Of a DNA stretch of 64,000 nt, positions 9,139-60,840 are shown in pieces. Numbering within the stretch: the stretch's first letter is position 1; each line of letters starts with the position of its first letter. Origin of the DNA: a virus; the IMG/VR virus record IMGVR_UViG_3300042868_006787, positions 18,054-82,053 of that record; one strand, written 5' to 3'. Under the pieces are notes generated by a model. The model made no database searches. It was not told where the DNA came from and worked only from the letters and a program-made list of their open reading frames with translations. Both the position numbers and the translations under genes were made by a program.

Positions 9139-9741
9139 TTAGACCTCTTCTAGCGTTATATTAATATTCCATAGGTCATGATTAGTAAATCCTCTTTTTA
9201 CTACAGAATAAGAAAAATCTCTAAAATACATTTGAACAATTTGATTATATTTTGTTTTATCATCATATCTATCATATGCTAAATAAACCCAAAATGGTCC
9301 TTTGTGATTTTCATACCATCCTAATAATTCTAATCCCCCTGCACCACCATCAACAGTAAATTCGCCTAAGCCTCCACGAAGATTTGTCAATCCATTAGAA
9401 TCAAAAGATGGGTTATCTATGTATGACTTTGATGGCAACAATTGCCAAGAAGTTGATAAATTAATTTTATCTGCTATGTTATAGGCTCTCATGTTTCCGT
9501 TAATCATTCTTTCTCTTTTTTGAATTCTTTCTTGGCCAAAAGACAGTTCATTCCTATTGTGATCTGATAAAATTAAAAATGTATTTTTCTCATTTTCTGA
9601 TACGCCAGTCAAATTTGATCCAATTTCGTATCCATCAGGATAATAGAATCCGTTAGATAGGGTTCCTGGATTTTCAGACCAAAGCATAGCCTGTGGCAGT
9701 ACATATCTACGTCTACCTGCTAAATACGCTGCACTAGCCAT
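9139..9741 (-). CDS. Putative distal tail protein (Dit-like)
   Basis: Directly after the tape measure; ends WNINITLEEV. Confidence 0.55.
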   Translation of the reverse strand: MASAAYLAGRRRYVLPQAMLWSENPGTLSNGFYYPDGYEIGSNLTGVSENEKNTFLILSDHNRNELSFGQERIQKRERMINGNMRAYNIADKINLSTSWQLLPSKSYIDNPSFDSNGLTNLRGGLGEFTVDGGAGGLELLGWYENHKGPFWVYLAYDRYDDKTKYNQIVQMYFRDFSYSVVKRGFTNHDLWNINITLEEV

Positions 9742-32802: not shown

Positions 32803-33498
32803 TTATAATAACACAAAACTATTATCATTATAGGTTTCTATAGGATCTATATTTTTATTAATAGGAAAAATATCGTATGCAATTGTAATCCTATCCTTTG
32901 AAAGATTCCAAGGAGCCATAGCATGTGCGTGGCCTGTTTCTGAAAGAATTGCAACATTGTTTTTATTATTAATAATTACATCTTTACCAAAAATTTTATA
33001 ATATGTTTTAGAAGGCTCTGCTGAAACCGAATAATAGCCATGAAGAAATGGGAAGCCTTCTCCTCCATGATCGTGCCAAGGCATTTTTTCTATCATCTCT
33101 TCAGTTATCTCAATATCCTCATTTGTACTATTTTTTACACTATATAAATTAAACCATCCATGAATAGAAAAGTCTTGATCTTCAAAATTTACACCATAAT
33201 ACTCGCAAGCCTCAATAGTCATAGATCTTATAGATTTTAATAAATTAATTAATGCTGGATGTTTAAAATTAAATATATTGTAATACTCGGTTGTCATTGA
33301 TGGAATTCCATCTTTTTTATCAATAAACATTTCCTTTGGAAATTTAGTCATTGTATGATCTGTAACCTCATTAATCTTAAAAAATTGCTCGGCATATATT
33401 AAGTAATTAACTTTATGCAGAAATGAGTATAAATCTTCTAAGTCATTATCTAATTCCCTAGAAAAAAATTTATGCTGTTTTTTCAAATGATTTTTCAT
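32803..33498 (-). CDS. Putative 2OG-Fe(II) oxygenase/cupin-fold protein, paralog 3
   Basis: HGWFN...WHDH...HGYY...SETGHAH...RITIAYD; ATGA coupling to the upstream paralog. Confidence 0.75.
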   Translation of the reverse strand: MKNHLKKQHKFFSRELDNDLEDLYSFLHKVNYLIYAEQFFKINEVTDHTMTKFPKEMFIDKKDGIPSMTTEYYNIFNFKHPALINLLKSIRSMTIEACEYYGVNFEDQDFSIHGWFNLYSVKNSTNEDIEITEEMIEKMPWHDHGGEGFPFLHGYYSVSAEPSKTYYKIFGKDVIINNKNNVAILSETGHAHAMAPWNLSKDRITIAYDIFPINKNIDPIETYNDNSFVLL

Positions 33499-34154
33499 GA
33501 TAATGGAATCCATTTTCCTGGTTTGCCACCAGACATCATAGCAGATGGAACTATATCATAGGCAATTGTTATTCTTGGGTTTTTTTGAAACCAATCATCT
33601 CTTCCATGTGGGTGACCAGTTTCTGAAATAATTGCTCTATTGTTTTTATTTACATTTTCAAAAATTTTATCTTCATTTCTGTCTATTTTATAAAAAGTAG
33701 AAGATGGCTCTGCATCTACACAGTAATATCCATGAAATGCTGGTGCGCCAATTCCATTCATATGATCATGAAAATGATTTGGATACTTTAATGGATTAAC
33801 TCCCCCATTTTTTCCTTCATTTGGAGTTTCCTGGTCTAAATTGAACCATCCGTGAATTAAATATTTTTCTTTATCCATATCTATTTCATAATATTCACAA
33901 ACATCTTTCATTAATTTTCCAAGAGACTTGTAGAGTTGATAAATGCCTGGATGAATAAAAGTAAAAATATTATAATGATCAATGCCTAACTTTGTTAAAG
34001 ATCCCATCCCTTTTCCATGCTTAAGCATTTCTTCTTTTGAAACATTTAGAATATTTTCATCTAAAATTAAAGATTCCATATCAACTAGATAAGACTTAAG
34101 ACTATTTAAATCATTATCTAAAACAACATTAAAAAATTTTTGTGGTTTACTCAT
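33495..34154 (-). CDS. Putative 2OG-Fe(II) oxygenase/cupin-fold protein, paralog 2
   Basis: HGWFN...FHDH...HGYY...SETGHPH...RITIAYD; start MSKPQ overlapping the upstream TGA. Confidence 0.75.
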   Translation of the reverse strand: MSKPQKFFNVVLDNDLNSLKSYLVDMESLILDENILNVSKEEMLKHGKGMGSLTKLGIDHYNIFTFIHPGIYQLYKSLGKLMKDVCEYYEIDMDKEKYLIHGWFNLDQETPNEGKNGGVNPLKYPNHFHDHMNGIGAPAFHGYYCVDAEPSSTFYKIDRNEDKIFENVNKNNRAIISETGHPHGRDDWFQKNPRITIAYDIVPSAMMSGGKPGKWIPLS

Positions 34155-34798
34155 GCCAGTGGAATCCAGTGCTGTTCCCAATTATGCATAATTCCTTTAA
34201 AAGGAATAACATCATAGGCAATTGTTATTCTTGGACCTTCCCAGTCCCAATCAGCCATGGCATGGGGATGGCCAGTTTCAGAAAGAATGGCTCTATTATT
34301 TTTATTTATATTTTCAAATTCTTTATCAAATACTTTGTAGTGAGTTGTTGATGGTTCTGCTTTTACAGAATAATAACCGTGAAACCACGGAGCGCCAGAG
34401 CCACCATGTTCGTGCCAATCAAGTTTTCCGGTGTGATTGTAATTAACATTAAACCAACCTTGTACCCAAAAATCCTCTTTTTCAAAATCAAGATCATAAT
34501 GTTTACAGGCTTCAATAGTCATAGACCTTACAGATCTAAACAATTTATGAATTGCTGGATGATAAAATTGAAAAACATTATATTTATTCCATTTGCTTGT
34601 AGTTATACTTCCAGAAGAGTCCCAAAGCGTCTTTTCATCTTTATCATTTTTTAATATTTCGCCTTTTTTAATACGTTCAGATTGTATAATTAAAAAATTT
34701 GATAAATTATCTAGGTCAGAATCTAAAGTTCTTTCAAAAAATTTATGAGGAACGTTTTTATTTTGACTAGTGCTGTTTAAAGAAATATTTTCGTACAT
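34151..34798 (-). CDS. Putative 2OG-Fe(II) oxygenase/cupin-fold protein, paralog 1
   Basis: QGWFN...WHEH...HGYY...SETGHPH...RITIAYD. Confidence 0.75.
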   Translation of the reverse strand: MYENISLNSTSQNKNVPHKFFERTLDSDLDNLSNFLIIQSERIKKGEILKNDKDEKTLWDSSGSITTSKWNKYNVFQFYHPAIHKLFRSVRSMTIEACKHYDLDFEKEDFWVQGWFNVNYNHTGKLDWHEHGGSGAPWFHGYYSVKAEPSTTHYKVFDKEFENINKNNRAILSETGHPHAMADWDWEGPRITIAYDVIPFKGIMHNWEQHWIPLA

Positions 34799-34846
34799 TT
34801 AGTCTCCATTTCTTTATATAGTATATCATAAAGATAAATGAGATTT

Positions 34847-36127
34847 TTACTTATTATGTACTAGATAATCTCCAGCAATAAACCAGTCTTGTGGCTCACA
34901 GTTAAACTGATAGACTACGGACTCTGAAATATCAGTTGTTATAGATACAATTTCTATTTCTGAAAAAGATCCATCTTGTTCAACTTTTATTAAAATATCT
35001 CCTTCTTCTATTTCAGAAGCATTTTTAACAACATAGGATGACCCCACTTTAGCAAAAAATGGCTGTGTCATTGAATATTTGCTATGGGATTCTCCATTAA
35101 AATATACAACTGAATACTTTGTTGATGGAACAATATTTACAACAGTTGTTGAAACTATTCCATTTGAAGTTAATGCTGAACTAGAAAATTCTGAGTAGTC
35201 ATAATCTCCAGCATCCCCTTCAGTTGACAATTCTGACAAACCTACTGAGTATACAGCATCTCCAACCTGAATATCTTTTGCTGCAACCAAACCAGTTGGC
35301 GTTCTAATTAGTGTGTCTGCTTCAATACAAGCACGTCCTCCTGGTGAAAAACCAAACGGTGTAAATCCAAATGGTGTAAATCCAAATGCGCCAAATGGTG
35401 TAAATCCAAATGCGCCAAATGGTGTAAATCCAAATGGTGTAAATCCAAATGCGCCAAATGGTGTAAATGAAAATGCATCAAACGGTACAAAACCAAATGC
35501 ACCGAATGGTGCAAAACCAAATGGTGTAAATGAGAATGATGTTACTGATCCTGAAGCAGCAGATGTGCCTGAATTACCGTTAGCGTTAGTTGCATAAACG
35601 GTGTATGTTTGTGCTGTTCCCGCTTCTTGCCCTACAGAAACAGATGTTCCCGCCTGTGTTGCTCCCTTGCCATCGCTAGAAGCCCAAGTGTAAGAAGTAA
35701 TAGCACTTCCACCAGTTGCTGGTGCTGACCAAGAAACGTCGTCGTTTGCCGCTCCACCTTGTGCAGTTGCGCTAGGTGCTGATGGAGTTGCAGGAACTGT
35801 TGTTGCAGTTACTGAGCCGCTTGCTGCACTTGCTGCCGATGTTCCATAAGTATTAGTTGCAGTTACTGTAAATGTATAAGCAGTATCACTTGATAAACCT
35901 GTAACCCGAATTGGAGAACTCGAGCCAGAAGCGGTGTAACTTCCTGGGGTTGATAAAACTGTATAAGAGGTTGCAGCATTTCTTGGGTCTGCAGTGAAGG
36001 AAACATCTACAGCACCATCATTATATGGACGAGCAGTTCCAACATTGGATGCAGAATCAATTGTTGGTGCATATGGCATTAAAAAGTCATTAGCACCTTG
36101 CGATTTACGACCACTTCTTTTACTCAT
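34847..36127 (-). CDS. FN3-FN3 + F(G/S)FTP repeat + C-terminal Hint-domain protein
   Basis: FN3 motifs (VTGLSSDTAYTFTVTATN; VSWSAP...YTVYATN); ten FxFxP units; Hint CIEADTLIRT...DIQVGD...VYQF...FIAGDYLVHNK. Confidence 0.85.
   Translation of the reverse strand: MSKRSGRKSQGANDFLMPYAPTIDSASNVGTARPYNDGAVDVSFTADPRNAATSYTVLSTPGSYTASGSSSPIRVTGLSSDTAYTFTVTATNTYGTSAASAASGSVTATTVPATPSAPSATAQGGAANDDVSWSAPATGGSAITSYTWASSDGKGATQAGTSVSVGQEAGTAQTYTVYATNANGNSGTSAASGSVTSFSFTPFGFAPFGAFGFVPFDAFSFTPFGAFGFTPFGFTPFGAFGFTPFGAFGFTPFGFTPFGFSPGGRACIEADTLIRTPTGLVAAKDIQVGDAVYSVGLSELSTEGDAGDYDYSEFSSSALTSNGIVSTTVVNIVPSTKYSVVYFNGESHSKYSMTQPFFAKVGSSYVVKNASEIEEGDILIKVEQDGSFSEIEIVSITTDISESVVYQFNCEPQDWFIAGDYLVHNK
35345..35538 (-). 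repeat. Coding tandem repeat (15/24-bp units, FGFTP and FGA-FGFTP)
   Basis: Repeated AAATGGTGTAAATCC / AAATGCGCC on the plus strand. Confidence 0.95.
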
Positions 36128-36171
36128 AAACTCTTCTCCCCTTATTTATTAATTTTTTTCCTGTCTAACAA

Positions 36172-37911
36172 TTACGCTGAAAGATCTCCAAAGACTACCC
36201 AAGAGTTTTCTGCTCTCTTAAATAATGTTGCAGATGACCAACGTGTACGAAGTTTAAGTCCAGGAGTAGCATTTACTGTTACTCCAGCATCGCCAGCAAT
36301 TGTAACCTGTCCAGTGTTAGTCTGTAGAATATCCAATGTGGTTCCTACTGGATAAGCAACTGCGCTATTTAGTGGGATGGTGATTGTTGTTCCTGATTCT
36401 GAACTTACTTCAATTAATGAGTCTCTTTCTGATTCTGCTGAAAGAGTATAAGAAGCAGTCTTTGAAATAATTGGTGTTCGTGAAGGAACGCCTTCTTTTG
36501 TTTGTGTTCCGTCTGGGAATACTACTCCAGATGAGGGGGTTACTGTTGTAGCCTCAAGTGCAGCAACTTTAATGTCATCAAGTGACCCTTCTGTAAAATC
36601 AATGGTAGTTGTTGGCTCTGTTGTTACGCCTTTAAACAGTTTCCACTTAGCATCAGATGCGTCTCTTACTAATCCTGAGTGTTTTGCTGTTCCATCATTG
36701 TATGCAACTACAAGGCCAAGGTCAATCGTATTTGCTGGATTTTCGTGAGCAAGTTGAAGAATATTGTCTTCAACTGTAATACTCGTTGATGATACTGCAA
36801 AGGTATTTCCATTTACTGTTAAATTTCCATCTACAGTAAGAGCGTCAACTGTTGTTGTTCCTGTAAATGTTGGTCCTGCAAGATTAGCCTTAAGATCAAG
36901 GGCTGTCTGTGTAGCACTTGATACTGGCTTATTTGCATCTGATGTATTGTCAACATCTGAAAGCCCTACCATAGTCTTTGTAACTGCTCCTTCTGCAATT
37001 TTTGCAGTAGTTACTGCTGCATTAGCAAGTTTTTCTGTTGTAACAGAAAGGCCACCAAGTTCATTAGTTCCAACTGAGTCATCACTTAAATGTGATTGTG
37101 AAATTGCATTGTCTGCAATCTTAGGTCCAGTTACTGCTGCATTTGCAATTTTTGCTGTTGTGACAGAATCAGAAACTGGAGTTCTTTCATCTGAAAGACG
37201 TGAATCGTTTGTGTAAACAAGGTTTAGTGTATTTGAAATACCATGTACGCTTGTATTTCCTGATTCATGGTCTGCTAATGAATTAGAAACTGCAACAAGA
37301 TCTTCGTCATAGACTAGACTAAATACGTTTGAGATACCATGGACATTTGAGGTTGCTGATTCATGACCTGCTAATGAATTAGAAACTACATCAAGATCTT
37401 CATCATAGACTAAGGTAAAAGCGTTTATAATACCATGGACATTTGAGGTTGCGTTAGCATGATTTTCAACTGAAGTTTTGACTGCATAATGATCTTGATC
37501 AAGTACTGACAAGGCATTATTTGTGCTTGCAATAGAGTTGCTAAGGCTAGAATTAGTATTACTTTGCTGTGTTAAAACATTTTGGATGTTTGCAAGATTT
37601 TGAGTAATCGAATTTGCAAATCCTGCGTCATCTCCAATTGCTGCTGCAATCTCATTAAGAGTATTTAGTGTGTTTGGTGCTGCGTCGATAACCGCATCAA
37701 TTGCATTATTTATAGCAGTAGTAACCTCTGATGAATCAAATACAATGGAGGCATCTACGAAATATTGTAGGCTTGCAAATGCAGTACTTCCATTACCTAC
37801 TTTAAACTTGTTGGTATCTGTTTCAAAGCCAATTTCTCCTGCGCCCAGTACTGGATTTGCTGCAGCCCATTGTGCTGCTGTACCTCTGCGCTGTTGCATT
37901 CTAGTTGCCAT
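36172..37911 (-). CDS. Tail fibre-like protein (Mtd/hyaluronidase-type N-terminus, HGI and VTxAKIA repeats, shared C-terminal domain)
   Basis: QQRRGTAAQW...GEIGFETDT.KFKVG.G N-terminus; APNTLNTLNEIAAAIGDD; C-terminus TPGLKLRTRWSSATL...WVVFGDL. Confidence 0.8.
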   Translation of the reverse strand: MATRMQQRRGTAAQWAAANPVLGAGEIGFETDTNKFKVGNGSTAFASLQYFVDASIVFDSSEVTTAINNAIDAVIDAAPNTLNTLNEIAAAIGDDAGFANSITQNLANIQNVLTQQSNTNSSLSNSIASTNNALSVLDQDHYAVKTSVENHANATSNVHGIINAFTLVYDEDLDVVSNSLAGHESATSNVHGISNVFSLVYDEDLVAVSNSLADHESGNTSVHGISNTLNLVYTNDSRLSDERTPVSDSVTTAKIANAAVTGPKIADNAISQSHLSDDSVGTNELGGLSVTTEKLANAAVTTAKIAEGAVTKTMVGLSDVDNTSDANKPVSSATQTALDLKANLAGPTFTGTTTVDALTVDGNLTVNGNTFAVSSTSITVEDNILQLAHENPANTIDLGLVVAYNDGTAKHSGLVRDASDAKWKLFKGVTTEPTTTIDFTEGSLDDIKVAALEATTVTPSSGVVFPDGTQTKEGVPSRTPIISKTASYTLSAESERDSLIEVSSESGTTITIPLNSAVAYPVGTTLDILQTNTGQVTIAGDAGVTVNATPGLKLRTRWSSATLFKRAENSWVVFGDLSA

Positions 37912-37958
37912 TTTTTATTTCCTCCTGGGGGTTATGGGTATAATTATAACAGATTATT

Positions 37959-38414
37959 TTAGTTAAAATTATCTGTTGCTGTTCCGCCATCATACGTTAA
38001 TGTCCAAGATGATGTTGATGGTAATCCTGCATCTTGTGGTGTTCCTTGTGGTGCATTATAAAATCCACTACTTATAAATTGGCTGACTATAAAACCAGTT
38101 CCATCTATTGCTGTATCGTGAATGTGATCTGGTAGTGTTTGTGTATCATCAATTGTTGCAATTGTAATCCAAGAACCATTGTAATAAACGTTGACTCGAG
38201 ATGTTAACGTATCAAACCATAGTTGTCCATTTGTTGGAGAAACGGGGGCAGTTGATGATGCTGGCATTGCGCCAGTTACTGAATCAACATATGCTTTAGT
38301 GGTTGCATGGGTGCTTTCAGTTGGAGTTCCAACTACTACAGCATTTCCAAAACTACCGCCAGCAGTAACAATAAGGCCATTTTTGATCTTAAAGTCTTTT
38401 TCTACTGTTGCCAT
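37959..38414 (-). CDS. Fibre/decoration-associated protein
   Basis: MATVEKDFKIKNGL N-terminus; HATTKAYVD and P.NGQLWFDT fibre motifs. Confidence 0.65.
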   Translation of the reverse strand: MATVEKDFKIKNGLIVTAGGSFGNAVVVGTPTESTHATTKAYVDSVTGAMPASSTAPVSPTNGQLWFDTLTSRVNVYYNGSWITIATIDDTQTLPDHIHDTAIDGTGFIVSQFISSGFYNAPQGTPQDAGLPSTSSWTLTYDGGTATDNFN

Positions 38415-38443
38415 TTATCTCCCCCGTTTTTAGTTATTTTTTA

Positions 38444-39919
38444 TTACGCTACTAGTGTTCCGACAACTGTTACTGTTGAACTGTTATTAGCAGTTGTTAC
38501 ATTGAGTCGGACATCTGCTCCTGAAATACTTGCTGAAATTGTTGATGCTGAACCATTGGTTCCAACAATTGCGTATTCAGTGATTGCAATGTTATCTGAA
38601 GTATCAAGTGTCAAAAGGACCTTTGAAATTTCAGTGTGTGCTCCGTAAGCAACCTTTACAAGGTATTCTGCTGAACGATATTCAGCCTTTGCAAAAGAAT
38701 GTGCTACTTGAATTCCTGCTGTTGGTGCTGATAGTTGTGCTGCAACCTGCTTAGCAACTGAGGATAACTCAACTGCTACAAAGTTTGGAACAACTGCTTC
38801 AAGAGCAGATACTGCACGAGCATTTGAGAAGTAAAGGTTTGAAGTTCCTTCTACTAAATCATCAGTATCAGAATCTCCTACACCGTTTTCAGCGGTAATA
38901 GTAAGTCCTGCGCCTGAGCCTGTTATTGTAATGTTTGAAAGTGTTGCACCAGTTAAAAGATCTGCTGCTGCTGACTTTGAACGAGCATTTGAGAAATAAA
39001 GGTTACTTGCTCCTTCTTCAATATCGTCTGTGTCAAGTGCTGCGATTGCATTTGCTGCGGTTCCTGCTGCGTCATATGATGCTGCAGTTGCTGCTTGTGC
39101 ACGAGCATTTGAGAAGTAAAGATTAGAAGCACCTTCTGAAACATCATCTGTGTCAAGGCTAGTTACAGAAATTGTATTTCCTGTAATATCAATGTTTGAC
39201 CCTGCAGTTAAAATGTTTTGCTTTAATGCAACTGAGTTAGCAAGTGTTACAGCAAAGTTTGCGTCATCACCAATTGCGTTTGCTAATTCATTAAGAGTAT
39301 TAAGCAAATCTGGTGCTGAATCAACAATTGCTGCTACAGCGTTGGCTGCTGCTTCATCTGCATAATCTTGTGCATCTGATAATGCATTTGCTGCTGCGCC
39401 TGCAAGATCGTATGATCCAGCAAGTGCTGCTTGGGCACGTGCATTTGTAAAGTAAAGGTTTGTTGTACCTTCTGTTAGGTCGTCAGTATCAGAATCTGCT
39501 ACACCGTTTTCTGCAGAGATAGTAAGTCCTGAACCTGATCCTGTAATTGTAATGTTTGTTAGAGTTGCACCAGTTAAAAGATCTGCTGTTGCAGACTTTG
39601 AACGTGCATTTGTAAAGTAAAGGTTTGAAGTTCCTTCTGATAAATCATCAGTATCAAAGTTTGAAATGTCTGATACTTGACCAGTTACATCTCCAACAAG
39701 ATCTGCTGTAATTACGTTTGCAGCAAAGTTTTTGTTGCCATCACGAAGTACAATAGCATTTGCTACTGATGCTGAGTTTGCTACTCCACCAATAAGTCCC
39801 TGTATGTAAGTTGTGTCTCCTGCTGATTTTGTAAGAACGTCATTTCCGTTAACGGTTGCTGTCGCACCTTCAACGATTAGACCATATTTAACTTTAAAAT
39901 CTTTTGTTACTGTTGCCAT
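38444..39919 (-). CDS. Fibre-like repeat protein (DTDDL.EG..NLYF.NAR repeats)
   Basis: Five copies of the repeat; APDLLNTLNELANAIGDD; N-terminus MATVTKDFKVKYGL. Confidence 0.75.
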   Translation of the reverse strand: MATVTKDFKVKYGLIVEGATATVNGNDVLTKSAGDTTYIQGLIGGVANSASVANAIVLRDGNKNFAANVITADLVGDVTGQVSDISNFDTDDLSEGTSNLYFTNARSKSATADLLTGATLTNITITGSGSGLTISAENGVADSDTDDLTEGTTNLYFTNARAQAALAGSYDLAGAAANALSDAQDYADEAAANAVAAIVDSAPDLLNTLNELANAIGDDANFAVTLANSVALKQNILTAGSNIDITGNTISVTSLDTDDVSEGASNLYFSNARAQAATAASYDAAGTAANAIAALDTDDIEEGASNLYFSNARSKSAAADLLTGATLSNITITGSGAGLTITAENGVGDSDTDDLVEGTSNLYFSNARAVSALEAVVPNFVAVELSSVAKQVAAQLSAPTAGIQVAHSFAKAEYRSAEYLVKVAYGAHTEISKVLLTLDTSDNIAITEYAIVGTNGSASTISASISGADVRLNVTTANNSSTVTVVGTLVA

Positions 39920-39934
39920 TTTGTATCTCCTAGG

Positions 39935-40381
39935 TTATGCCTTAAGTCCCATACGTGCGTAACGTACGGTGATCGGGCGGATTGATATGTCTGGGTCTAC
40001 TGTTAAATAAACAGTGTTTCCACTTCTAGAGACGCTTATGGTGCCAATATTCCCATCATTGTCTATCGTGCCGTACTCGCTTACGGAAATGTCGCTTCCA
40101 TCTACAAGTATTGTCATCTCTGTGGCATAAAATTTATTATCGCCAGCAGAAGTCTTTGAAATTGCTATCAGATATTTAACCATTCGCCATTCAGTTGCAC
40201 TGAAACTGTCTATTGTGGTTAAATTTTCAATACCATTAATAGTATTATCATTGTTACCCGCAGACCCTAAACTTGTTGCTTGGGATGCAGTAGTATCAAT
40301 AAGATTTATGTAATCGGCCTGTGTAGGGCGGTCACCTGTTTGGAACAAATTCTTTACATTTGGGATTGATATGATTGCCAT
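39935..40381 (-). CDS. Virion-associated protein sharing a C-terminal domain with 38444-39919
   Basis: FQTGDRPTQADY; F.A.EWRMVKYLI...SEYGTI versus F...EYRSAEYLV...TEYAIV. Confidence 0.6.
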   Translation of the reverse strand: MAIISIPNVKNLFQTGDRPTQADYINLIDTTASQATSLGSAGNNDNTINGIENLTTIDSFSATEWRMVKYLIAISKTSAGDNKFYATEMTILVDGSDISVSEYGTIDNDGNIGTISVSRSGNTVYLTVDPDISIRPITVRYARMGLKA

Positions 40382-40404
40382 GGCATTATTATAACATTAT
40401 TTTA

Positions 40405-40968
40405 TTACAGTTTTTCAATCCAAACTTGATACCCTTTTTGTAAAATTTTAATTCTAAGTTCGTTGTTTTTTAAAAACCTATCAATACCATTTAAAGGTTT
40501 TAAGTCAACATTTCGACTTGGGTGCTCCCATCCGTAATCATCAAACGCAAGGATTCCTCCTGATTTTAAAAGCGGGAATGCTAAAATTGCATCATTGTAA
40601 ACACCTTCTGCTGAATGATCTCCATCTATATATATAAAGTCAAACTCTGCATCAGAAGAAGATAGGTATTCTTTGCTATCTTTTTTGATCTTTATAGAAT
40701 TCGGGAACTGGCTCATTTTTTCATCATACATTGACTCAATTTCATCCCAGTCAAATTCTGTGTGAATTTTTTCTTTTGAGCCTTTCCAAGTATCTATGTC
40801 TGTAAGGCTTGATGTTTTGTCTGTTAATATATTTTTTAACAGCCATTCAGAGCCATGACCAAGGTATACGCCAATTTGTAAAAAATTAACATTTGGAAGG
40901 TCTTTATACTTGTTTAAAAATTTTTCAAATATTTGAATGTTGCTAGAAAACCAGTTTGGGTATTTCAT
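40405..40968 (-). CDS. Class I SAM-dependent methyltransferase (Methyltransf_24-like)
   Basis: FLQIGVYLG...IDTW...FDFIYIDGDH...LLKSGGILAFDDY. Confidence 0.85.
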   Translation of the reverse strand: MKYPNWFSSNIQIFEKFLNKYKDLPNVNFLQIGVYLGHGSEWLLKNILTDKTSSLTDIDTWKGSKEKIHTEFDWDEIESMYDEKMSQFPNSIKIKKDSKEYLSSSDAEFDFIYIDGDHSAEGVYNDAILAFPLLKSGGILAFDDYGWEHPSRNVDLKPLNGIDRFLKNNELRIKILQKGYQVWIEKL

Positions 40969-41692
40969 GGTTTCTCCAATAGTCCAAGGTTTGTTCTTTT
41001 GATGTTGTGTGAATAGAGAACTTGCCAGTTTCTTCTGCGGTCTTATCAAACTCCAAATTAATTGAAGAGCCATAATCCATTGTGTAAGTAAAAAGTGGAA
41101 TAGATAAGGTTTTGCAACCTTCGTATATCAAAATATCTGCTAATGCTGCTCGTGAACTTGGCAAAACATATTTTCCATCAATAAAATATTTCTTTAATAA
41201 GGCTTCTGCCCTATTTCTTTTAATTAAATAGCATGCTGCAGACCAGTCTCTTTTTTCTTTCATATGTAAGGATGGATTGACCCTATAGTTATGAATAATG
41301 CAAAGTTGTAACATGTCGTATGGTTTTTTTATTGATTCTACAAAATTAGAAAATTCAAAATTCCAAAAATCTACAGTCTCTAAACTTAAATCGTCTTCAG
41401 TAATAATTGCATATTCAGAATCTGAAGTCTCTAGCCAATGTTTGATTGTTTCAAGATGCGAGATAGTTGCCCCTAATTCATTTTTTGCCAACTGAAGTTT
41501 ATCTTTTTCAAAAACAATTTTATCAAAATCAAAAGTGTCACCATCATAGGCTGTAATAATTTTATAATCTTTTATTTCATACTTTTCAAAATGATTTTTT
41601 ATATAGTCTAGCCTGTCTGTCTTAGACTCAAGATTAATCACATATATTGGGGAGAACCCCTTTAATTTATTTAAACCAGTATGTTCCAGCAT
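40943..41692 (-). CDS. Glycosyltransferase family 25-like
   Basis: IYVINL...DR...ELGATISHL...AIITEDD...ACYLI. Confidence 0.85.
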   Translation of the reverse strand: MLEHTGLNKLKGFSPIYVINLESKTDRLDYIKNHFEKYEIKDYKIITAYDGDTFDFDKIVFEKDKLQLAKNELGATISHLETIKHWLETSDSEYAIITEDDLSLETVDFWNFEFSNFVESIKKPYDMLQLCIIHNYRVNPSLHMKEKRDWSAACYLIKRNRAEALLKKYFIDGKYVLPSSRAALADILIYEGCKTLSIPLFTYTMDYGSSINLEFDKTAEETGKFSIHTTSKEQTLDYWRNHEIPKLVF

Positions 41693-42380
41693 GGGACACC
41701 CTCACGTATGGCGCAAGATAAATTTTTCCACCACTTTCTTTCCATAGTTTACAAAATTGATAATCTTCAGATAGCAGTCTTTCGCTTTCGTCATCAATTG
41801 TTGTTTGCCAAAAATCATATATTGGGTCTCCAAAAACAATGCTACCAATCTGTGGTTGATCGCACCTATATTGTTTAATGTCTTTTTTAATTGTTTCAAA
41901 AACATTCCTGGATATTAGCATTAAGCCAGTGCCCATGTAATCAACCTCTGCTATGGTATTTGGATTTTCTTTTAACATTTTTCTTTGTTCTTTGTTCATA
42001 TTTACATTAAATATTGCAGTGTGCTCATCTAAGTTTTCTTTACCATCTAGAACGGCCTTTTTAACTCTTGCCCAATTAATGGCCTTCATTGGTACTGCTG
42101 CGCCAATAAGGTCTACATTTTCATCTATCATTCTTACGACAGCCTGTGCGTCAAACCCTTGATCCGCATCTATAAATAAAAGATAATCGCTCATACTTCT
42201 TAAAAACATTTCTGTCAAAGTATTTCTTGCTCTAGTAATTAAAGATTCATTAGAAAGATCAATAAAATTAAGTTGGTGCCCTGAATTAGAAACTGCCTGA
42301 GCCAATTGTAAAACACTTTTCATAAAAGCACCACTACAGACACCACCATACATTGGTGTGGCTAACGTAATATGAGCCAT
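41667..42380 (-). CDS. GT-A fold glycosyltransferase-like protein
   Basis: ATPMYGG...NESLITRARN...LLFIDAD (DxD)...GTGLMLISR...LSEDYQFC. Confidence 0.8.
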   Translation of the reverse strand: MAHITLATPMYGGVCSGAFMKSVLQLAQAVSNSGHQLNFIDLSNESLITRARNTLTEMFLRSMSDYLLFIDADQGFDAQAVVRMIDENVDLIGAAVPMKAINWARVKKAVLDGKENLDEHTAIFNVNMNKEQRKMLKENPNTIAEVDYMGTGLMLISRNVFETIKKDIKQYRCDQPQIGSIVFGDPIYDFWQTTIDDESERLLSEDYQFCKLWKESGGKIYLAPYVRVSHAGTYWFK

Positions 42381-42391
42381 AATTCTCCTAT

Positions 42392-42616
42392 CTATAAAAT
42401 GTAGTTACTGTATCCAATTACTTGCAGTGGAATTGGAGGGGGGTTAGTAGAACTATACCCCTCAATCCCAATGTTAATAAACTTTATGCGAAACGGTAAA
42501 ACATCATTAATTTTTACAACTCTTGTTTCTGGAACAATCTTTGTAATTGAATAATTTTCTAAAGTTATACTTTTTGTTTTATTGGCGCCCTTGTTGGACA
42601 GGACTGCTTTTGCCAT
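42392..42616 (-). CDS. Hypothetical protein
   Basis: 74-aa ORF coupled to the upstream gene. Confidence 0.6.
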   Translation of the reverse strand: MAKAVLSNKGANKTKSITLENYSITKIVPETRVVKINDVLPFRIKFINIGIEGYSSTNPPPIPLQVIGYSNYIL

Positions 42617-43026
42617 TAATCTGTTACGTCTTCTAGGATAACCATACTACCCTGGGCAACTGTCCAGACCTGAAGATTACCAGCAGAAGAAAGTTGTATG
42701 TCGAAGATGTCTCCTGTTTGAAGAGATACTGATTCTGATGCCTCTAGAGAAACTGTAAATTCGCCATCGCCATCATCTGCATCATGAATTGGTGTTAATG
42801 CCATAATTGTAGTTGCATCATCTGTAATGACACCTTTATTTTGTGCAAGAGTTGGACGTTTAATTTTCATTGTAATTGTCCAATCTGGAATATTTAATGG
42901 CTCTTTGGCGTCATCGGTTACGTAAACACGAAACGCAGATGTGTCTCCACGAACTACTGTCCAAGTTACTGTTGGAGGTTTGTTCCCAACTTCATATTGA
43001 CCGCTACTGCTTCTTGTTGTTGCCAT
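42616..43026 (-). CDS. RGDT-motif (BppU N-terminal-like) virion protein
   Basis: WTVVRGDT...FDIQL...TVAQG; paralog of 48079-48441 and 49386-49772. Confidence 0.6.
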   Translation of the reverse strand: MATTRSSSGQYEVGNKPPTVTWTVVRGDTSAFRVYVTDDAKEPLNIPDWTITMKIKRPTLAQNKGVITDDATTIMALTPIHDADDGDGEFTVSLEASESVSLQTGDIFDIQLSSAGNLQVWTVAQGSMVILEDVTD

Positions 43027-43042
43027 GATTTAATTATAACAC

Positions 43043-43573
43043 TTAAAGTCCGTTTTTAACAGCACCCCAGGTGGCATTTCCTCCCTTAATTGGCGAAACT
43101 AATATTTTTCCACTTGTTGCATGTGAATATGAAACAACACCAATAACACCAGAGCCATTTGTTGGTCGGGCATTGACTAGCCCACCAGAAGCCCCTATAT
43201 ATAACTTATCTCCATTAGAATATGTAGAAGTATTAATGTCATCTAAAACTCCAACCGTTACTACAACACCTTCTTGTCCATCTAATATTTGAGCCTTGAC
43301 CAAACCAACACATGGGAATGTATTAATATCATCAGACTCACATTTATCGATAGTTGCTCTGCCACTAGAGTATCCAGTTATGTATACAGGAGTTCCTTTT
43401 ATTAATGTTGCCCCGCTTATATTTTTTACATCAAGAGATAAATAAGGGACTTGTAGGGCAGTTAATATATCATTTACCTTTTCTGCCATTTCTTGCATGT
43501 CAGAATGAACGTTTACAGGATCATCTGCTAACGGATATGGTATTAATTGCGGATTTGTTGAACCTGATGCCAT
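43043..43573 (-). CDS. Virion decoration/cement-like protein
   Basis: IPYP...DPVNVHSDM; KGTPVYI...GVV...G.L.DINTS.Y..GD.LY. Confidence 0.5.
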   Translation of the reverse strand: MASGSTNPQLIPYPLADDPVNVHSDMQEMAEKVNDILTALQVPYLSLDVKNISGATLIKGTPVYITGYSSGRATIDKCESDDINTFPCVGLVKAQILDGQEGVVVTVGVLDDINTSTYSNGDKLYIGASGGLVNARPTNGSGVIGVVSYSHATSGKILVSPIKGGNATWGAVKNGL

Positions 43574-43607
43574 AATTTTATTATTATACCACTAAAAGCA
43601 TTGGTAG

Positions 43608-43637
43608 TTGACAAAATTGATTTGGGGTTGATATAAT
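43608..43637 (+). promoter_or_regulatory. Sigma70/SigA-type promoter of the lysozyme-like gene
   Basis: TTGACA-N18-TATAAT with TG extension; GACACC-GAAA-GGTGTT hairpin and AGGAGG downstream. Confidence 0.75.
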
Positions 43638-43683
43638 TAAGGTATTGACACCGAAAGGTGTTATTTTACTTATAGGAGGATCT

Positions 43684-44214
43684 ATGAATAAAGAAGATTT
43701 TATTACTGGAATTGCCGGAAGTTTTATTGCTGCCGTAGTTGGTTTAACTGGGGCTAACGCAAATCTAGAAGAAATTGTACCTATAGAAACTGCAAATGAA
43801 AAAGTTGAGTCGGGGACTCCGTCCGCAATAAAAGCAAAATATTCTAACGTTACAACCCTGTCAGATAAAGAGTTAAAGGTTTTATTGAAAGCGGTTGGCT
43901 TTGACGGACAAGGTTTAAAAATGGCATGGGCAGTTGCTAAAAAAGAAAGCAATGGCAGGCCTCTGGCCTTTAACGGCAACAAGGACACTGGCGACCACTC
44001 GTTTGGAATATTTCAGATTAATATGAATGGAAGATTAATGGAGGATAGACTAGAAAAATTTAATCTTAACTCGGTCTCTGATCTTTTTAATCCAGTAACC
44101 AATGCAGAGATTGCTTTCTACATGACAAAAGGCGGAAAAGATTGGTCATCTTGGACTTATCTTGAGGGACAAAGAATTAAAGAATTTTTAACTAAATATC
44201 CGACAATTAATTAA
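43684..44214 (+). CDS. Secreted lysozyme-like/lytic transglycosylase
   Basis: Signal peptide-like N-terminus ending ANA; AVAKKES (catalytic Glu), DHSFGIFQIN, NAEIA...DWSSW. Confidence 0.8.
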   Translation: MNKEDFITGIAGSFIAAVVGLTGANANLEEIVPIETANEKVESGTPSAIKAKYSNVTTLSDKELKVLLKAVGFDGQGLKMAWAVAKKESNGRPLAFNGNKDTGDHSFGIFQINMNGRLMEDRLEKFNLNSVSDLFNPVTNAEIAFYMTKGGKDWSSWTYLEGQRIKEFLTKYPTIN

Positions 44215-44834
44215 AAATAGGCAATAGCCGTATATTTTGTTCCAGAAGTAACTCTAAGTTCTCTGTGTCTATAGTTTTTGTTTGCTGGATATATCAAAAC
44301 ATCTCCTGCAGATAAACTTATAATTTCGTTGCCAACTCTATTTTCAAATTGAAATTCACCACCAGCATAGTTGTCGTTTAATGCTATAACAATTGTATAA
44401 AAATGTTTTTGTCCATCTCTATCTAAATCATCGTGAAAATCAGAACTTTCAATTTGTTCGTAAATTGTAAAATTTTTTATTTTTTTTATTGACAGTTCGT
44501 ATTCTTTTATATAATCATACAGAAAGGGAAAGGCATAGTCAATTAATTCAGATTTTAAATTACTTTTTTTAATAGATTGCCCTAAATTGTTTGCCACTAA
44601 GTTAATTTCTGAAATTACTAAATTAGGAACCAATAAAAAATTATCTTCGCTTGGCAAGTTAATAACTTTTTGATTGACAATATGATCAGTATCTCTAATA
44701 TTTTTTAAAGAAGAAATGCTCCATACATTTTTTGTTGATGGCTCATTGTTTACTGTCTGTAACAATTCTATAAAATTTTTATTTTTATTCTCAGAATAAA
44801 GGATAACAAAGTTATCTAAAAAAGTTTTATTCAT
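44211..44834 (-). CDS. 2OG-Fe(II) oxygenase (prolyl 4-hydroxylase-like)
   Basis: FHDD (HxD)...LNDNYAGGEF...GDVLIYP...YRH...VTSGTKY. Confidence 0.8.
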   Translation of the reverse strand: MNKTFLDNFVILYSENKNKNFIELLQTVNNEPSTKNVWSISSLKNIRDTDHIVNQKVINLPSEDNFLLVPNLVISEINLVANNLGQSIKKSNLKSELIDYAFPFLYDYIKEYELSIKKIKNFTIYEQIESSDFHDDLDRDGQKHFYTIVIALNDNYAGGEFQFENRVGNEIISLSAGDVLIYPANKNYRHRELRVTSGTKYTAIAYF

Positions 44835-44836
44835 AA

Positions 44837-45448
44837 TTAATTTTCTTCCATTATTAAATGACTAAGACATATAAAGTTTTCGGTTAAAAAAAAGTAATTA
44901 TCTAAAAGTACTAAAGAAACTGAAATTTGGTTAGAAATTTTTGATTCAAAATCTTCAATTTTTGTTTTTAAAAATGGTTGATCTGGGTTAACAAAAATAT
45001 TGTCATCTAAAGTTTCTACATTTAGATTAAAAGGCTTAGAATCTAAAGATTGAATAAAATAGTTTTCTTCATTTTCACTAGATATCATTTTACCAATAAT
45101 ACTATCTGCATTTTTTAAATACATGTGATCTACCTCTAAATCTTTCTGTATTAATATTGGATCTATTCCTGACAATATATTGTTGTTTAAACTTTTAAAA
45201 TTTCCAAAATTTTTATGAACAAAAACAGAATATACTGTTGCAGAACACAAAACAGTATCTCCTGTTTGAATAAAAAATCCTTCTCTTTTGTTATTTAATT
45301 TTATGTATCGATGATAAAATTCTGAATGAGTTAAAATTTCTGAATCTTTTGTTTTAATAGATAAAATTTTATCACCAAACTGTAAATCTTCAATGTTTTT
45401 TAAAGTTTTATCCTCAAGATATACTTTTGTTCCAATTGGGAATCCCAT
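44837..45448 (-). CDS. Stand-alone Hint-like domain lacking the catalytic Cys1 and terminal HN
   Basis: MGFPIGTKVYLEDKTLKNIEDLQFGDKILS matches Hint block A/N1 with Gly in place of Cys; C-terminal NYFFLTENF. Confidence 0.6.
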   Translation of the reverse strand: MGFPIGTKVYLEDKTLKNIEDLQFGDKILSIKTKDSEILTHSEFYHRYIKLNNKREGFFIQTGDTVLCSATVYSVFVHKNFGNFKSLNNNILSGIDPILIQKDLEVDHMYLKNADSIIGKMISSENEENYFIQSLDSKPFNLNVETLDDNIFVNPDQPFLKTKIEDFESKISNQISVSLVLLDNYFFLTENFICLSHLIMEEN

Positions 45449-45453
45449 AAGGC

Positions 45454-46398
45454 CTACTTATTATGCACTAAATAATTACCCGCAATAAACCAATCTGCTG
45501 GCTCACAACTAAATTGATAAACAGTTGTGTCTTTTATTAATGGAGTTATAGTTTCAATTAAAACTTCTGTAAAACTTCCATCTTCATTTACTTGTATCAA
45601 ATAATCTCCGACCTGTAGAGCCCCTGTTGGAACTACTTGATAAAAGTCATTTGATTTTGTAAACATTGGCTGACTAATTGAAAATAATTTTTCTAAATCA
45701 TCATTAAAATATATTACTTCGTTTTTTGCAAAAGGCTCTATAGCAACAATGCGTGTGGTTGTTTTGTTTAATGGTGTAAGAGTTTTTGAAATCATTCCTA
45801 CATAATCAAAATCATATTGCCCTGTAATATCGCTTTGTGGAATTTCTAATAAATTAACGCTGTCAATTTCATCATCAACTTTTAGGTCTTTGGCTGCAAT
45901 TGGGCCATTAGGTGTGCTAATTAAAGTGTTTTCATCTATGCAGTTTGGTGGCGTAAAACTAAAAGGCCCAGGATTTGGTGCAAAAGAAAAAACTGGAGTA
46001 AAGCCAAATGGGGTAAAACCAAATGGGGTAAAACCAAAAGAAACAACTGGGGTGAAACCAAAAGGAGTAAAACCAAAAGAAACAACTGGGGTAAAACCAA
46101 AAGCAACAACTGGGGTGAAACCAAAAGGAGTAAAACCAAATGCTCCGAATGGAGTAAAACTAAAAGTATAATTTACTAAATTTACATTAGTACCAACAGC
46201 CTGAACTTCTCCTGCCACAATGCTTTGAGATTTAATTGTGTTATTTAGCCCAGCATCTCCTGTGTTTTCGTTTGTTGTGTTATAAACAAAGCCAGCGTTA
46301 GTTAAATTTGTTTCTGCAGTAGTTTTTGCAACTCCAACTACGTTTGGTATTGAGTTTTTTCGTGATCCTTTATTTCCACGTCCGATATTTTTTGCCAT
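45454..46398 (-). CDS. PASTA-like + F(G/S)FTP repeat + C-terminal Hint-domain protein
   Basis: IPNVVG...AETNLTNAGF...IKSQS..AG...GTNVNL (PASTA-like); eleven FxFxP units; Hint CIDENTLIST...DLKVDD...VYQF...FIAGNYLVHNK. Confidence 0.85.
   Translation of the reverse strand: MAKNIGRGNKGSRKNSIPNVVGVAKTTAETNLTNAGFVYNTTNENTGDAGLNNTIKSQSIVAGEVQAVGTNVNLVNYTFSFTPFGAFGFTPFGFTPVVAFGFTPVVSFGFTPFGFTPVVSFGFTPFGFTPFGFTPVFSFAPNPGPFSFTPPNCIDENTLISTPNGPIAAKDLKVDDEIDSVNLLEIPQSDITGQYDFDYVGMISKTLTPLNKTTTRIVAIEPFAKNEVIYFNDDLEKLFSISQPMFTKSNDFYQVVPTGALQVGDYLIQVNEDGSFTEVLIETITPLIKDTTVYQFSCEPADWFIAGNYLVHNK
45946..46166 (-). repeat. Coding tandem repeat (FGFTP with VVS/VVA/FGA spacers)
   Basis: Repeated GG(G/A)GT(A/G)AAACCAAA on the plus strand. 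Confidence 0.95.
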
Positions 46399-47018
46399 TA
46401 TGCAACCAAATCTCCCATAGCAACCCAAGTATTTGCTGCACGTTTTACTAGAGTTACGCTAGACCACTGTGCTCTAATTTTTAGACCTGGGGTAGCATTT
46501 ACTGTAACTCCCGATGCTCCTGCAAGTGTAACTTGAGAAGAAGAAGTTTGTAAAATATCAATAGCAGTTCCAATTGGAAAGTCAACACTAGAGTCAAGTG
46601 GGACCGTTAATGTTCCTCCAGCAGACATTTCTATCATTTTAAAAGAATCTGAAATAACAAGAGTGTAAGAAGATGATTGTTGATTAAATGTGTATAAAGG
46701 ATCTACGATTGATAACCAATTTGTTCCATCATAAACCTGTAAATCATTTATAACACTTCCGCCAGCATTTTGTTTTAAAAATATAATAGTTCCGTAAATT
46801 GGTGTTGGAATTGCTGCTAATGCTGCTGCTGGGTTTAAGAATATATTAACATTTTTTGCAATTACGGTAGAGTTTAAAGATACAGTTGAATCAAATGTTT
46901 GCCCTGCAGTCCAAGTGTATGCTGCTGCAGTGTTTACTTTACCTGCAAGTTCATACCACTGGTCGGTGGCTTCATCATAAACATATCCTGGCCTTGGTGT
47001 TGAATTAAATGTTGCCAT
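46398..47018 (-). CDS. Short fibre-like protein with the same C-terminal domain as 36172-37911
   Basis: SYTLV.SD...IE...TLTVPL.SSV.FP.GT..DILQT...VT.AG..GVTVNATPGLK.R..WSS.TL.KRA.N.WV..GDL.A. Confidence 0.75.
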   Translation of the reverse strand: MATFNSTPRPGYVYDEATDQWYELAGKVNTAAAYTWTAGQTFDSTVSLNSTVIAKNVNIFLNPAAALAAIPTPIYGTIIFLKQNAGGSVINDLQVYDGTNWLSIVDPLYTFNQQSSSYTLVISDSFKMIEMSAGGTLTVPLDSSVDFPIGTAIDILQTSSSQVTLAGASGVTVNATPGLKIRAQWSSVTLVKRAANTWVAMGDLVA

Positions 47019-48464: not shown

Positions 48465-48535
48465 CTTTGAGTGAAGGAATCGGACCTTCATTGTCAGGTT
48501 CGGAACCTGGGGTCCGACCATTAGACGAACTCAAA
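48465..48535 (-). tRNA. Atypical tRNA with anticodon CCG (Arg), no encoded CCA
   Basis: Cloverleaf TTTGAGT/ACTCAAA, GTCT/GGAC, CCAGG-TTCCGAA-CCTGA, GAAGG-TCCGATT-CCTTC; TGGTATAAT promoter just upstream. Confidence 0.7.
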
Positions 48536-48560: not shown

Positions 48561-49283
48561 TTAACAGATAGAAATAGTCATGCTTTTTAAAATCATATCT
48601 GAGGGGAAGTCAGTCCTTATTTGTGGCTTTGCTATGCCTTTAAAAGATGCATCTTCTATATACAAGGTTTGATCTATAACAAAATCATAAGTATTTTGAT
48701 ATTTTAAAGATCCCACAAAATTTACATGCTCTGTGTTATTTTTTGTAAAAAGCGTTCTTACCCAAACGTCAGTGTTTGCAGAGTAAGTTGATAATTGAAT
48801 ACTGTAAGAAATCTGTATTTTTGTTCCTACCTTAAGGCCTAAGAAATTAAACCCTTGTGCTTCGTCAATCCATAGCCGTTCGTTGTCTTTGGGCAAAAAC
48901 TCTTCATTACTTAACTTTCTTTTAAAATTAAGAGTTACCCAACCTTTATCTCCTTCGGTTATTCCTAAATTTATTTTTTGTGTTTGCGAATTATAATATT
49001 TTGCCCAACCTGGTTGTTGTCCAGATAAAGATATTCCGTCTTTACCAGGCTTTCCTTCTTTTCCTTTTGCACCTGGAGGCCCTGTAAGTCCAGGGTCGCC
49101 TTTAGGGCCTTGTGCGCCTTCTAGTCCTGGTAAACCTTGGGGTCCTTGTGGACCTTGAATTGGAACATATGTTTGAGGTGTGGGAAAAGTTTCTGGGGTT
49201 ATGTTTTGTTGCGCTTCTATAACTTTTTCAATATATGCATCTTTTGTTGCAAATGGCGTTGGCACGTTTTTACTTATTGCCAT
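48561..49283 (-). CDS. Collagen-like (Gly-X-Y) protein
   Basis: [40 protein letters not shown]. Confidence 0.85.
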
Positions 49284-60672: not shown

Positions 60673-60746
60673 GGTCCCATAGATCAATTGGTTAGATCGT
60701 TACCCTGTCACGGTAAAGGCTACGGGTTCAAGTCCCGTTGGGATCG
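60673..60746 (+). tRNA. tRNA-Asp(GTC)
   Basis: GGTCCCA/TGGGATC acceptor, GATC/GATC D-stem, TTACC-CTGTCAC-GGTAA, ACGGG-TTCAAGT-CCCGT; no CCA. Confidence 0.92.
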
Positions 60747-60840
60747 CAAGTGGGCCCGGGCATGACTATTTAAATAATAACACACAATTGTTTCATTAAG
60801 AACGCTTGACTTTTTTCCCAGTTGCCTGTAAAATATTAAT

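Follow-up and report, generated by a model that had tools for sequence, protein, structure and literature searches.

What is the function of a gene cassette that a phage carries twice, and in which a fibre-like gene is followed by a gene for a phenylalanine-rich protein ending in a Hint domain and by one or more oxygenase-like genes? Hint domains have been described in inteins, in Hedgehog proteins and in toxins or variable proteins of bacteria. The question is raised by a stretch of 64,000 nucleotides (positions 18,054 to 82,053 of the IMG/VR virus record IMGVR_UViG_3300042868_006787), which we refer to as the window and to which all coordinates apply unless another locus is named. The 82-kb record is estimated to be 76% complete, and by its genes for an HK97-type capsid protein, a portal and a protease its source is a siphovirus-like phage. 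An original prediction, made from the letters of the window, had pointed out the two-fold cassette, and all genes named in it were recovered as open reading frames on the minus strand, at 32803-37911 (set 1) and 44211-47018 (set 2). Our analysis suggests that the cassette probably encodes an accessory adhesin of the fibre tip with a disordered aromatic tail, which would be made with a self-removing cap resembling bacterial intein-like (BIL) domains. The protein that carries tail and cap is termed the partner in the following.

Within set 1 the fibre gene (36172-37911) is followed by the gene of partner 1 (34847-36127), by three oxygenase-fold paralogues reaching down to 32803 and then by a ribonucleotide reductase gene. 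Set 2 comprises a short fibre-like gene (46398-47018), the gene of partner 2 (45454-46398), a stand-alone Hint-like gene (44837-45448) and an oxygenase gene (44211-44834), and all genes of both sets lie on the minus strand. By homology, the first gene of either set appears to encode a phage tail fibre or minor tail protein. Fibre 1 (579 aa) has an Mtd_N-type N-terminus (Pfam Mtd_N, 1.7e-15) and hits to many PHROG tail-fibre families, and the C-terminal part of protein 2 (206 aa) matches phrog_8780, phrog_21978 and phrog_18179. The closely similar ends that had been noticed in the two fibres held up: similarity is confined to the last ~96 residues (57% identity, E 2e-32), which form a domain ending in GDLSA in fibre 1 (36175-36462, minus strand, also similar to the C-terminus of phrog_8780) and in GDLVA in protein 2 (46401-46688, minus strand). 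Pfam and PDB sequence searches with this tip domain returned nothing useful. It carries an invariant Lys and shares ~48% identity with the C-terminal end of proteins that are annotated as minor tail proteins in 223 Gordonia phages. In these phages the tip-bearing gene is followed, after 3-5 nt, by a gene whose product (~200 aa) has a basic N-terminus, no repeat and no Hint; cultured examples are gp35-gp36 of Lilbeanie (L159:2201-4911) and the corresponding region of Bjanes7 (L160:2051-4908).

The two partners share one layout, namely a basic N-terminal peptide, a folded region, a tail of FxFxP units and a Hint domain, and across repeat and Hint they are 50% identical (E 1e-70). Their N-terminal domains differ. 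Partner 1 (426 aa) contains an FN3 domain (residues 34-102, 4.8e-7) and a second Ig/FN3-like domain (residues 119-189, weak hit to PKD_6), which together span residues 34-189 (35561-36028, minus strand). Partner 2 (314 aa) contains a PASTA domain at residues 17-75 (46174-46350, minus strand), with a Pfam match of 6.1e-6 and 26.5 bits against a cut-off of 23.2 and block values of the predicted local distance difference test (pLDDT) of ~80-92. An exchangeable N-terminal domain, 10 and 11 repeat units and a Hint domain running from Cys1 to LVHNK and the stop codon had all been predicted for these proteins, and Pfam, unit counts and translations agree with this description. The true start of partner 2 is the ATG of MAKNIG, which overlaps the stop codon of the fibre gene as TAATG. 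For partner 1 the ATG lies 44 nt past the fibre stop, with a ribosome-binding-like site (GGGGAG) shortly upstream of it. Translation of the partner thus seems coupled, or almost coupled, to that of the fibre.

The pairing of fibre tip and partner extends to other viral genomes. With the partner protein as query, 76 viral loci were found, and in every one that includes DNA upstream, the partner gene is immediately preceded by the fibre-tip gene. More than 451 relatives of the partner, all metagenomic, were found in a word-indexed search; they come in a PASTA form (~270-310 aa) and an FN3 form (~410-435 aa), and a cluster look-up returned only the annotation 'hypothetical protein' for them. In L019 (8805-16163) and similar distant loci, the partner gene is followed by an island of ~7 kb between fibre-like genes, which contains genes for DUF6065-like proteins, the oxygenase paralogues, oxygenases of the prolyl 4-hydroxylase (P4H) type, a glycosyltransferase-like gene and a short-chain dehydrogenase. 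A scan of prokaryotes, with one genome for each of 185,579 species, matched a single 7.6-kb contig of a metagenome-assembled genome (MAG), which is probably phage DNA itself, and the family is therefore in effect restricted to phages. When the 104 distinct proteins encoded directly after a tip gene were classified gene by gene, nearly all were found to have an aromatic-rich low-complexity stretch, mostly of a Phe/Pro type. A crude aromatic-window statistic, which at its best threshold gave 89/103 after the tip gene and 51/400 in the background, was set aside because of this high background in AT-rich DNA. Since the fibre tip is constantly found upstream while the partners vary and can lack the Hint domain, including those of Gordonia phages, the conserved core is, on these comparative grounds, the pair of fibre tip and downstream partner, and the cargo of the partner varies.

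What, then, does the Hint domain at the end of the partner do? The two domains of the window, Hint 1 (160 aa, 34850-35329) and Hint 2 (162 aa, 45457-45942), both on the minus strand, start with Cys1 (A|CIEADT and N|CIDENT), carry S-M-T-Q and S-I-S-Q, respectively, in block B and end in LVHNK. A profile built from 23 diverse Hint domains matches inteins (1.4e-4) and the BIL domain 2lwy of Clostridium thermocellum (1.2e-3). In the AlphaFold2 (AF2) model of the PASTA-type protein, block pLDDT is ~90 over most of the PASTA domain and of the Hint domain. A Foldseek search with the Hint model ranked BIL2 of Tetrahymena (6y75, E 3e-7), 2lwy (TM 0.81 on the target), inteins and Hedgehog (1at0) first, and the top 40+ matches were all BIL domains, inteins or Hedgehog. 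Among 123 cluster representatives close to the two Hint proteins of the window, Cys1 and the Ser of block B are present in 123/123, the penultimate His in 121, the Asn in 119 and the final Lys in 121. The wider family, recovered by a HMMER search with the Hint profile, comprises 668 clusters (50% identity) at E values up to 1e-10, and in wider relatives the end reads HNK or HN-x-K. A Cys clade, the one ending in His-Asn-Lys, can be told from a Ser clade of more distant relatives with Ser at position 1; the latter retains S/T-x-x-H in block B and ends in His-Asp|Ser plus a tail of 20-45 aa (...LYQQWK...) or in (F/Y)-D. All proteins in which position 1 could be scored, 72 from loci and 96 wider representatives, have Cys or Ser there, and this residue and the penultimate His persist across relatives of less than 30% identity. 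From this pattern we conclude that the catalytic positions of the Hint domain are under selection.

The N-terminal nucleophile is the sole catalytic feature that is universally kept. This suggests that what the family conserves is the first acyl shift, as it is for Hedgehog and BIL domains (PMC7664689). Canonical intein splicing, which had been ruled out from the start, is indeed excluded, because Lys and a stop codon follow His-Asn in both copies and in 121/123 relatives and no Cys, Ser or Thr is available at the +1 position. In BIL domains a +1 nucleophile is missing, and they yield mainly cleaved products (PMC7664689, PMC7765530). In the reading that we favour, Cys1 of the folded Hint domain would attack the preceding peptide bond in an N-to-S acyl shift. 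Resolution of the thioester would let the Hint depart and would free the protein of tag, domain and tail as the mature product, and the Hint would thus act as a removable cap for an aggregation-prone tail. The mature partner would probably sit on the fibre-tip domain as an extra adhesin, its FN3 or PASTA domain being presumably of the wall- or glycan-binding type, and the downstream oxygenase-fold genes would be candidate modifiers of virion proteins. The original prediction had placed a Hint-driven activation or release of the C-terminus at its centre, and this part is favoured by the predicted Hint fold, the invariant Cys1 and the BIL and Hedgehog matches.

The tail that would be released in this way is built of units that we counted as F-[GSA]-F-[TSAVG]-P. 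Tract 1 (35330-35536, minus strand) has 10 units and 25 Phe in 69 aa, and tract 2 (45943-46164, minus strand) has 11 units in 74 aa. Tract 2 is predicted to be disordered: over residues 85-149 the pLDDT of the AF2 model stays under 50, with block means of 36-47. The units follow one another directly, with no spacers that resemble recognition or protease sites. The two tracts differ in their codons, as had been noticed before: Thr is encoded by ACA in 7/7 cases in tract 1 and by ACT, ACC or ACG in 10/10 cases in tract 2, and Gly mostly by GGA in the former and GGT in the latter. In about one eighth of the post-tip proteins the tail is aromatic and free of proline (GFYH.., FFSVF.., FYN..). An example is found in L088 (6638-7765) and its relatives in L083-L097, where the post-tip slot holds a PASTA-like protein with a proline-free Gly/Phe/Tyr/His repeat (GFYHGFYHGFGHY...) and a Ser-type Hint cap.

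The Hint domain is missing in 26/103 distinct complete partners, and these stop at the junction that is equivalent to the start of the Hint in the others. In most of them (19/26) the last residue is an Arg or Lys that directly follows the repeats (...GFR, ...PPFR, ...FTPR, ...SFLK), and at least four repeat types are represented. A basic residue also occurs before many Hint domains: at position -1 the Ser clade has Lys in 30/45 proteins, and the Cys clade (n=119) has Ser in 42, Arg in 21, Lys in 20, Pro in 12 and Asn in 11. The window shows Ala (Hint 1) and Asn (Hint 2) at this position. A maximum-likelihood tree of 49 partners shows at least 10 changes of Hint state (Cys, Ser or none), and well-supported branches force at least four changes for each state. 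This tree was built from the N-terminal tag and the first FN3 domain, a short alignment of 115 columns in which recombination is likely, and it shows modularity, not the order of events. An optional Hint together with a shared stop point would fit a self-removing Hint, with Hint-less genes encoding the mature form directly. The view that the Hint is a selfish passenger is compatible with a self-removing cap as well.

Some points weigh against this reading. The His of block B, which is normally needed for the acyl shift, is replaced by Gln in both copies of the window and in 111/123 close relatives (His in 12); for other inteins a compensation is known from work cited in PMC8616854 (its ref 67). 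Conservation is the whole of the case for cleavage, and the probable docking of the partner on the fibre tip is deduced from the adjacency of the two genes. Furthermore, plain hydrolysis of the thioester does not account for the strictly conserved Lys after His-Asn. It is from anatomy, homology, folds, conservation and synteny taken together that we infer cleavage, docking and adhesion.

The alternative that survives best concerns the genes further downstream. According to it, the oxygenases hydroxylate the repeat, for example at the Pro of FxFxP, and the cassette would be a system of substrate and tailoring enzymes of the collagen or PBCV-1 type; we regard this as a serious possibility, yet a doubtful one. 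That oxygenase genes follow the partner genes had been predicted for both sets, and Pfam confirms it for set 2; in set 1 the assignment of the three paralogues comes from the predicted fold. The protein of set 2 (207 aa, 44211-44834, minus strand; phrog_61) is a 2-oxoglutarate (2OG)-Fe(II) oxygenase of the P4H type, with a match to PF13640 (2OG-FeII_Oxy_3; 1.1e-6, 29.9 bits against a cut-off of 27), and its ligands are intact, namely HxD (FHDD), the distal His (YRH) and Lys (GTKY). Paralogues A (215 aa, 34151-34798), B (228 aa, 33495-34181, 42% identical to A) and C (236 aa, 32803-33513, 45% identical to A), all on the minus strand, gave no Pfam or PDB sequence match, and 23 members of their family remained without a Pfam match even at E values up to 10. 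The AF2 model of A (pLDDT 87) is closest to the uncharacterised structures 3bvc and 2rg4 (Z 17), and it reaches Z ~13 to the prolyl hydroxylases PHD2 and P4H and to SnoN and FtmOx1. In a protein atlas, the nearest protein-language-model neighbours of the paralogues are viral clusters carrying PF13759 (2OG-FeII_Oxy_5). The invariant columns of the family include H131, H140, H179, R190 and T192, the distal His being followed by Arg-x-Thr, and the invariant His/Arg columns are kept in both B and C. At the putative first metal site the sequence is H-[DE]-H (H129, D130, H131) and not H-x-D. By predicted fold, all three paralogues very likely function as enzymes of the 2OG-oxygenase superfamily.

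Proximity recommends these enzymes as modifiers of the tail. Oxygenase genes directly follow the partner gene in close relatives and lie within 3-4 kb of it in distant ones, and even in the divergent loci L042 and L068 a P4H-type gene abuts or directly follows the partner gene. The paralogues combine their conserved His, His and Arg-x-Thr columns with a fold like that of prolyl hydroxylases, the tracts that precede the Hint in wider relatives of the family are rich in Pro, and a viral precedent is provided by the P4H of PBCV-1, which acts on Pro-Ala-Pro-Lys repeats (PMC3634087). However, of the conserved neighbourhood that had been expected for the three gene types, the fibre-partner pair alone proved tight (76 loci), and the oxygenases are linked more loosely. 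Within 79 loci anchored on the paralogue family, counted within the fetched locus (10 kb upstream), the fibre tip is present in 61 and the Hint in 51, always upstream; 18 have no tip, 28 have no Hint, and several have neither. In L105 the paralogue is located between a ribonucleotide reductase gene and a putative deaminase gene (read from sequence), and the paralogue set of the window also adjoins a ribonucleotide reductase gene. P4H-type orthologues that occupy this slot elsewhere do not all keep their ligands: the first iron-binding His is gone in L014, L006 and L042, the Asp in L003 and the 2OG-binding Lys in L006 and L042, and the L005 orthologue also lacks iron or 2OG ligand(s). These ligand-deficient orthologues may be pseudo-enzymes; where the iron ligands are lost, the protein cannot work as an iron enzyme in that phage. 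Moreover, an oxygenase paralogue remains downstream of partners with proline-free tails. Ligand-deficient orthologues and proline-free tails together imply that the module cannot serve in general to hydroxylate prolines of the tail, though in this particular phage it may do so. The proposal that the oxygenases tailor the repeat is weakened accordingly to an unproven candidate role, the link between oxygenase and partner protein being loose.

Other candidate substrates are encoded near the cassettes. A protein with collagen triple helix repeats (48561-49283) lies just upstream of set 2, and a GT25 glycosyltransferase (40943-41692) and a methyltransferase (40405-41073) are encoded between the two sets, all three on the minus strand. 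These proteins are possible alternative clients or partners of hydroxylase-like enzymes.

A second alternative addresses the conserved Lys directly and is, in our estimate, unlikely. Here the Hint domain would be a splicing element with a C-extein of a single amino acid, and the thioester would be attacked by an amine, either that of the +1 Lys, freed or positioned by cyclisation of the Asn, or that of a Lys in another protein, for instance the fibre tip. The Lys would be moved onto the tail, which would then end in Lys, or a Lys side chain or a virion Lys would capture the thioester as an isopeptide and so link the tail to the virion. Such a transfer would give the same basic C-terminus to the Hint-less, Ser-clade and Cys-clade forms, since the first two mostly end their tails in Arg or Lys and the Cys clade, whose -1 residue is usually not basic, would gain its Lys from the Hint. 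The final Lys is as conserved as the catalytic residues, and the wider relatives keep it after HN or HN-x. Tetrahymena BIL2 forms an isopeptide between a Lys epsilon-amine and its N-extein (PMC8616854, section 2.4), and BIL trans-splicing without nucleophilic side chains has been published (Aranko 2013, as cited in PMC7664689); the invariant Lys of the fibre-tip domain would be available as an acceptor. This support is purely comparative, and hydrolysis and aminolysis would look alike on it. In one third of the Cys-clade proteins position -1 is already occupied by Arg or Lys, and yet HNK is retained; the invariant Lys of the tip is also found beside Hint-less partners and so does not track the Hint.

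Could the Hint have lost its catalytic activity and remain part of the mature protein in a structural or binding role? We consider this improbable. The Gln in block B would agree with it, as would the stand-alone Hint-like gene of set 2, which had been missed in the original prediction and sits between the second Hint protein and the oxygenase. Its product (203 aa, 44837-45448, minus strand) has a weak Pfam Hint match, and an hhalign alignment to the Hint profile (88%, E 3e-6) covers the N-terminal half only. It carries Gly in the place of Cys1 and lacks the His-Asn end. In stand-alone proteins of this kind position 1 is Gly or a different residue, and their gene occupies the same slot in 9/9 PASTA-type loci with downstream DNA, including loci with a Hint-less partner. 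That so clearly dead a paralogue is retained in the cassette indicates that non-catalytic Hint folds are tolerated there. The partners themselves behave differently: even at below 30% identity they retain the nucleophile of position 1 (Cys or Ser) as well as the penultimate His, both of which the dead paralogue has lost, and their Hint-less homologues stop exactly at the junction.

The weakest alternative, also raised in the original prediction, is a multi-core precursor resembling those of ribosomally synthesized and post-translationally modified peptides, from which FxFxP units would be excised, modified and released as small peptides; short repeated units near oxygenases and an autoprocessing domain would suit it, but we reject it as highly improbable, because the units are contiguous and have no recognition or protease sites at their flanks, the place of a leader is taken by a folded FN3 or PASTA domain so that there is no leader/core layout, the cassettes contain no protease, cyclase or exporter gene as maturation enzymes, the gene always lies next to one for a tail-fibre tip domain that is found in minor tail proteins of cultured Gordonia phages, and a single contig from a cellular genome (the 7.6-kb MAG piece) was matched.

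With regard to the phage itself, neither the partner protein nor 20 kb of the phage DNA had a match in a collection of cultured phages. Its host has an actinobacterial leaning, drawn from the similarity to Gordonia phages, a match to the GP88 family known from mycobacteriophages, the PASTA domain and a LysM domain near the C-terminus of the tape-measure protein (2407 aa, 9741-16964, minus strand). WhiB was sought across the 82-kb record and was not found, and the host assignment therefore stays a leaning only. The genes from ~26 to 50 kb of the window lie on the minus strand, apart from a lysozyme-like gene with an SLT_3 domain (43645-44214) on the plus strand, which converges on the oxygenase gene of set 2. 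A promoter-like site at this gene (43608-43637) consists of a perfect TTGACA-18-TATAAT with TG extension; the promoter and terminator scan as a whole scored no better than shuffled sequence. Further features are tRNA-Arg(CCG) at 48465-48535 (minus strand), tRNA-Asp(GTC) at 60673-60747 (plus strand) and an open reading frame of 1196 aa at 26428-30018 (minus strand), which adjoins the portal gene and has no Pfam or PHROG match.

In the literature that we searched we found no published description of a module of fibre tip, aromatic tail and Hint. It represents a large phage family (668 clusters) in which a Hint domain ends a disordered aromatic tail within a receptor-binding gene block. If the cap cleaves, the module would show how phages make and deliver an aggregation-prone, sticky appendage, and it would provide compact natural modules for C-terminal cleavage or ligation. 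Because a basic C-terminus recurs, the family raises a well-defined question of chemistry, namely hydrolysis versus transfer to Lys. Should the single-Lys C-extein be real, phage particles would put intein chemistry to a new use, and the mature product of every form of the family would be an aromatic tail whose C-terminus is basic. The module also offers a concrete test case for the many orphan 2OG oxygenases of phages.

Several known systems resemble parts of this module. The intramolecular chaperone of tailspikes (Peptidase_S74 type) is a C-terminal domain that removes itself after its job. In Nup98, disordered Phe-Gly repeats are followed by a self-cleaving domain; this eukaryotic domain has an unrelated fold (peptidase S59) and cleaves at its own C-terminus, so that the likeness is one of analogy. 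The 'transient chaperone caps' of Alteromonas phages are similarly encoded directly after the fibre gene and act at the fibre tip (PMC10579305), and secondary receptor-binding proteins likewise have a docking peptide at the fibre tip (PMC13352976). Fibre chaperones, caps and S74 tailspikes differ from the partners in fold and chemistry, and neither a Hint domain nor an aromatic repeat has been described for the fibre chaperone and cap systems in the literature searched. PBCV-1 likewise combines a viral P4H-type 2OG oxygenase with virus-encoded, low-complexity, Pro-containing repeats (PMC3634087); in the phages, by contrast, the pairing of enzyme and substrate is a candidate one, some orthologues have lost their iron ligands, and the paralogues belong to a different branch.

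Closer parallels are found among the Hint domains themselves. Hedgehog/Hog proteins (1at0) also have a C-terminal Hint that performs the first acyl shift only, and their N-terminal part is released, possibly modified (PMC7664689, PMC2362128). Hog has a sterol or adduct recognition region after the Hint, whereas the proteins of the window stop at HNK; a post-Hint tail of 20-45 aa is confined to relatives of the Ser clade. The best Foldseek match, BIL2 of the Tetrahymena BUBL proteins (6y75, 6tmm), hands the C-terminus of its N-extein to a Lys epsilon-amine (PMC8616854). In BUBL the N-extein is ubiquitin-like and the acceptor Lys lies in the following domain or substrate, while the phage protein, known from sequence, has a Phe-rich tail as N-extein and a single Lys. 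With A-type BIL domains, represented by 2lwy of C. thermocellum and taken as summarised in PMC7765530, the phage domains share the HINT fold, Cys1, a C-terminal His-Asn and the lack of Cys, Ser or Thr at +1, as well as an occurrence in variable, non-housekeeping proteins and an expectation of cleavage over splicing (PMC7765530, PMC7664689); the likeness is one of these general features and of the sequence and fold matches to 2lwy. In contrast to A-type BIL domains, the phage Hint is located at the very end of the protein, has one Lys after the Asn and Gln in block B, and always follows an aromatic or Pro-rich disordered tract within a tail-fibre module.

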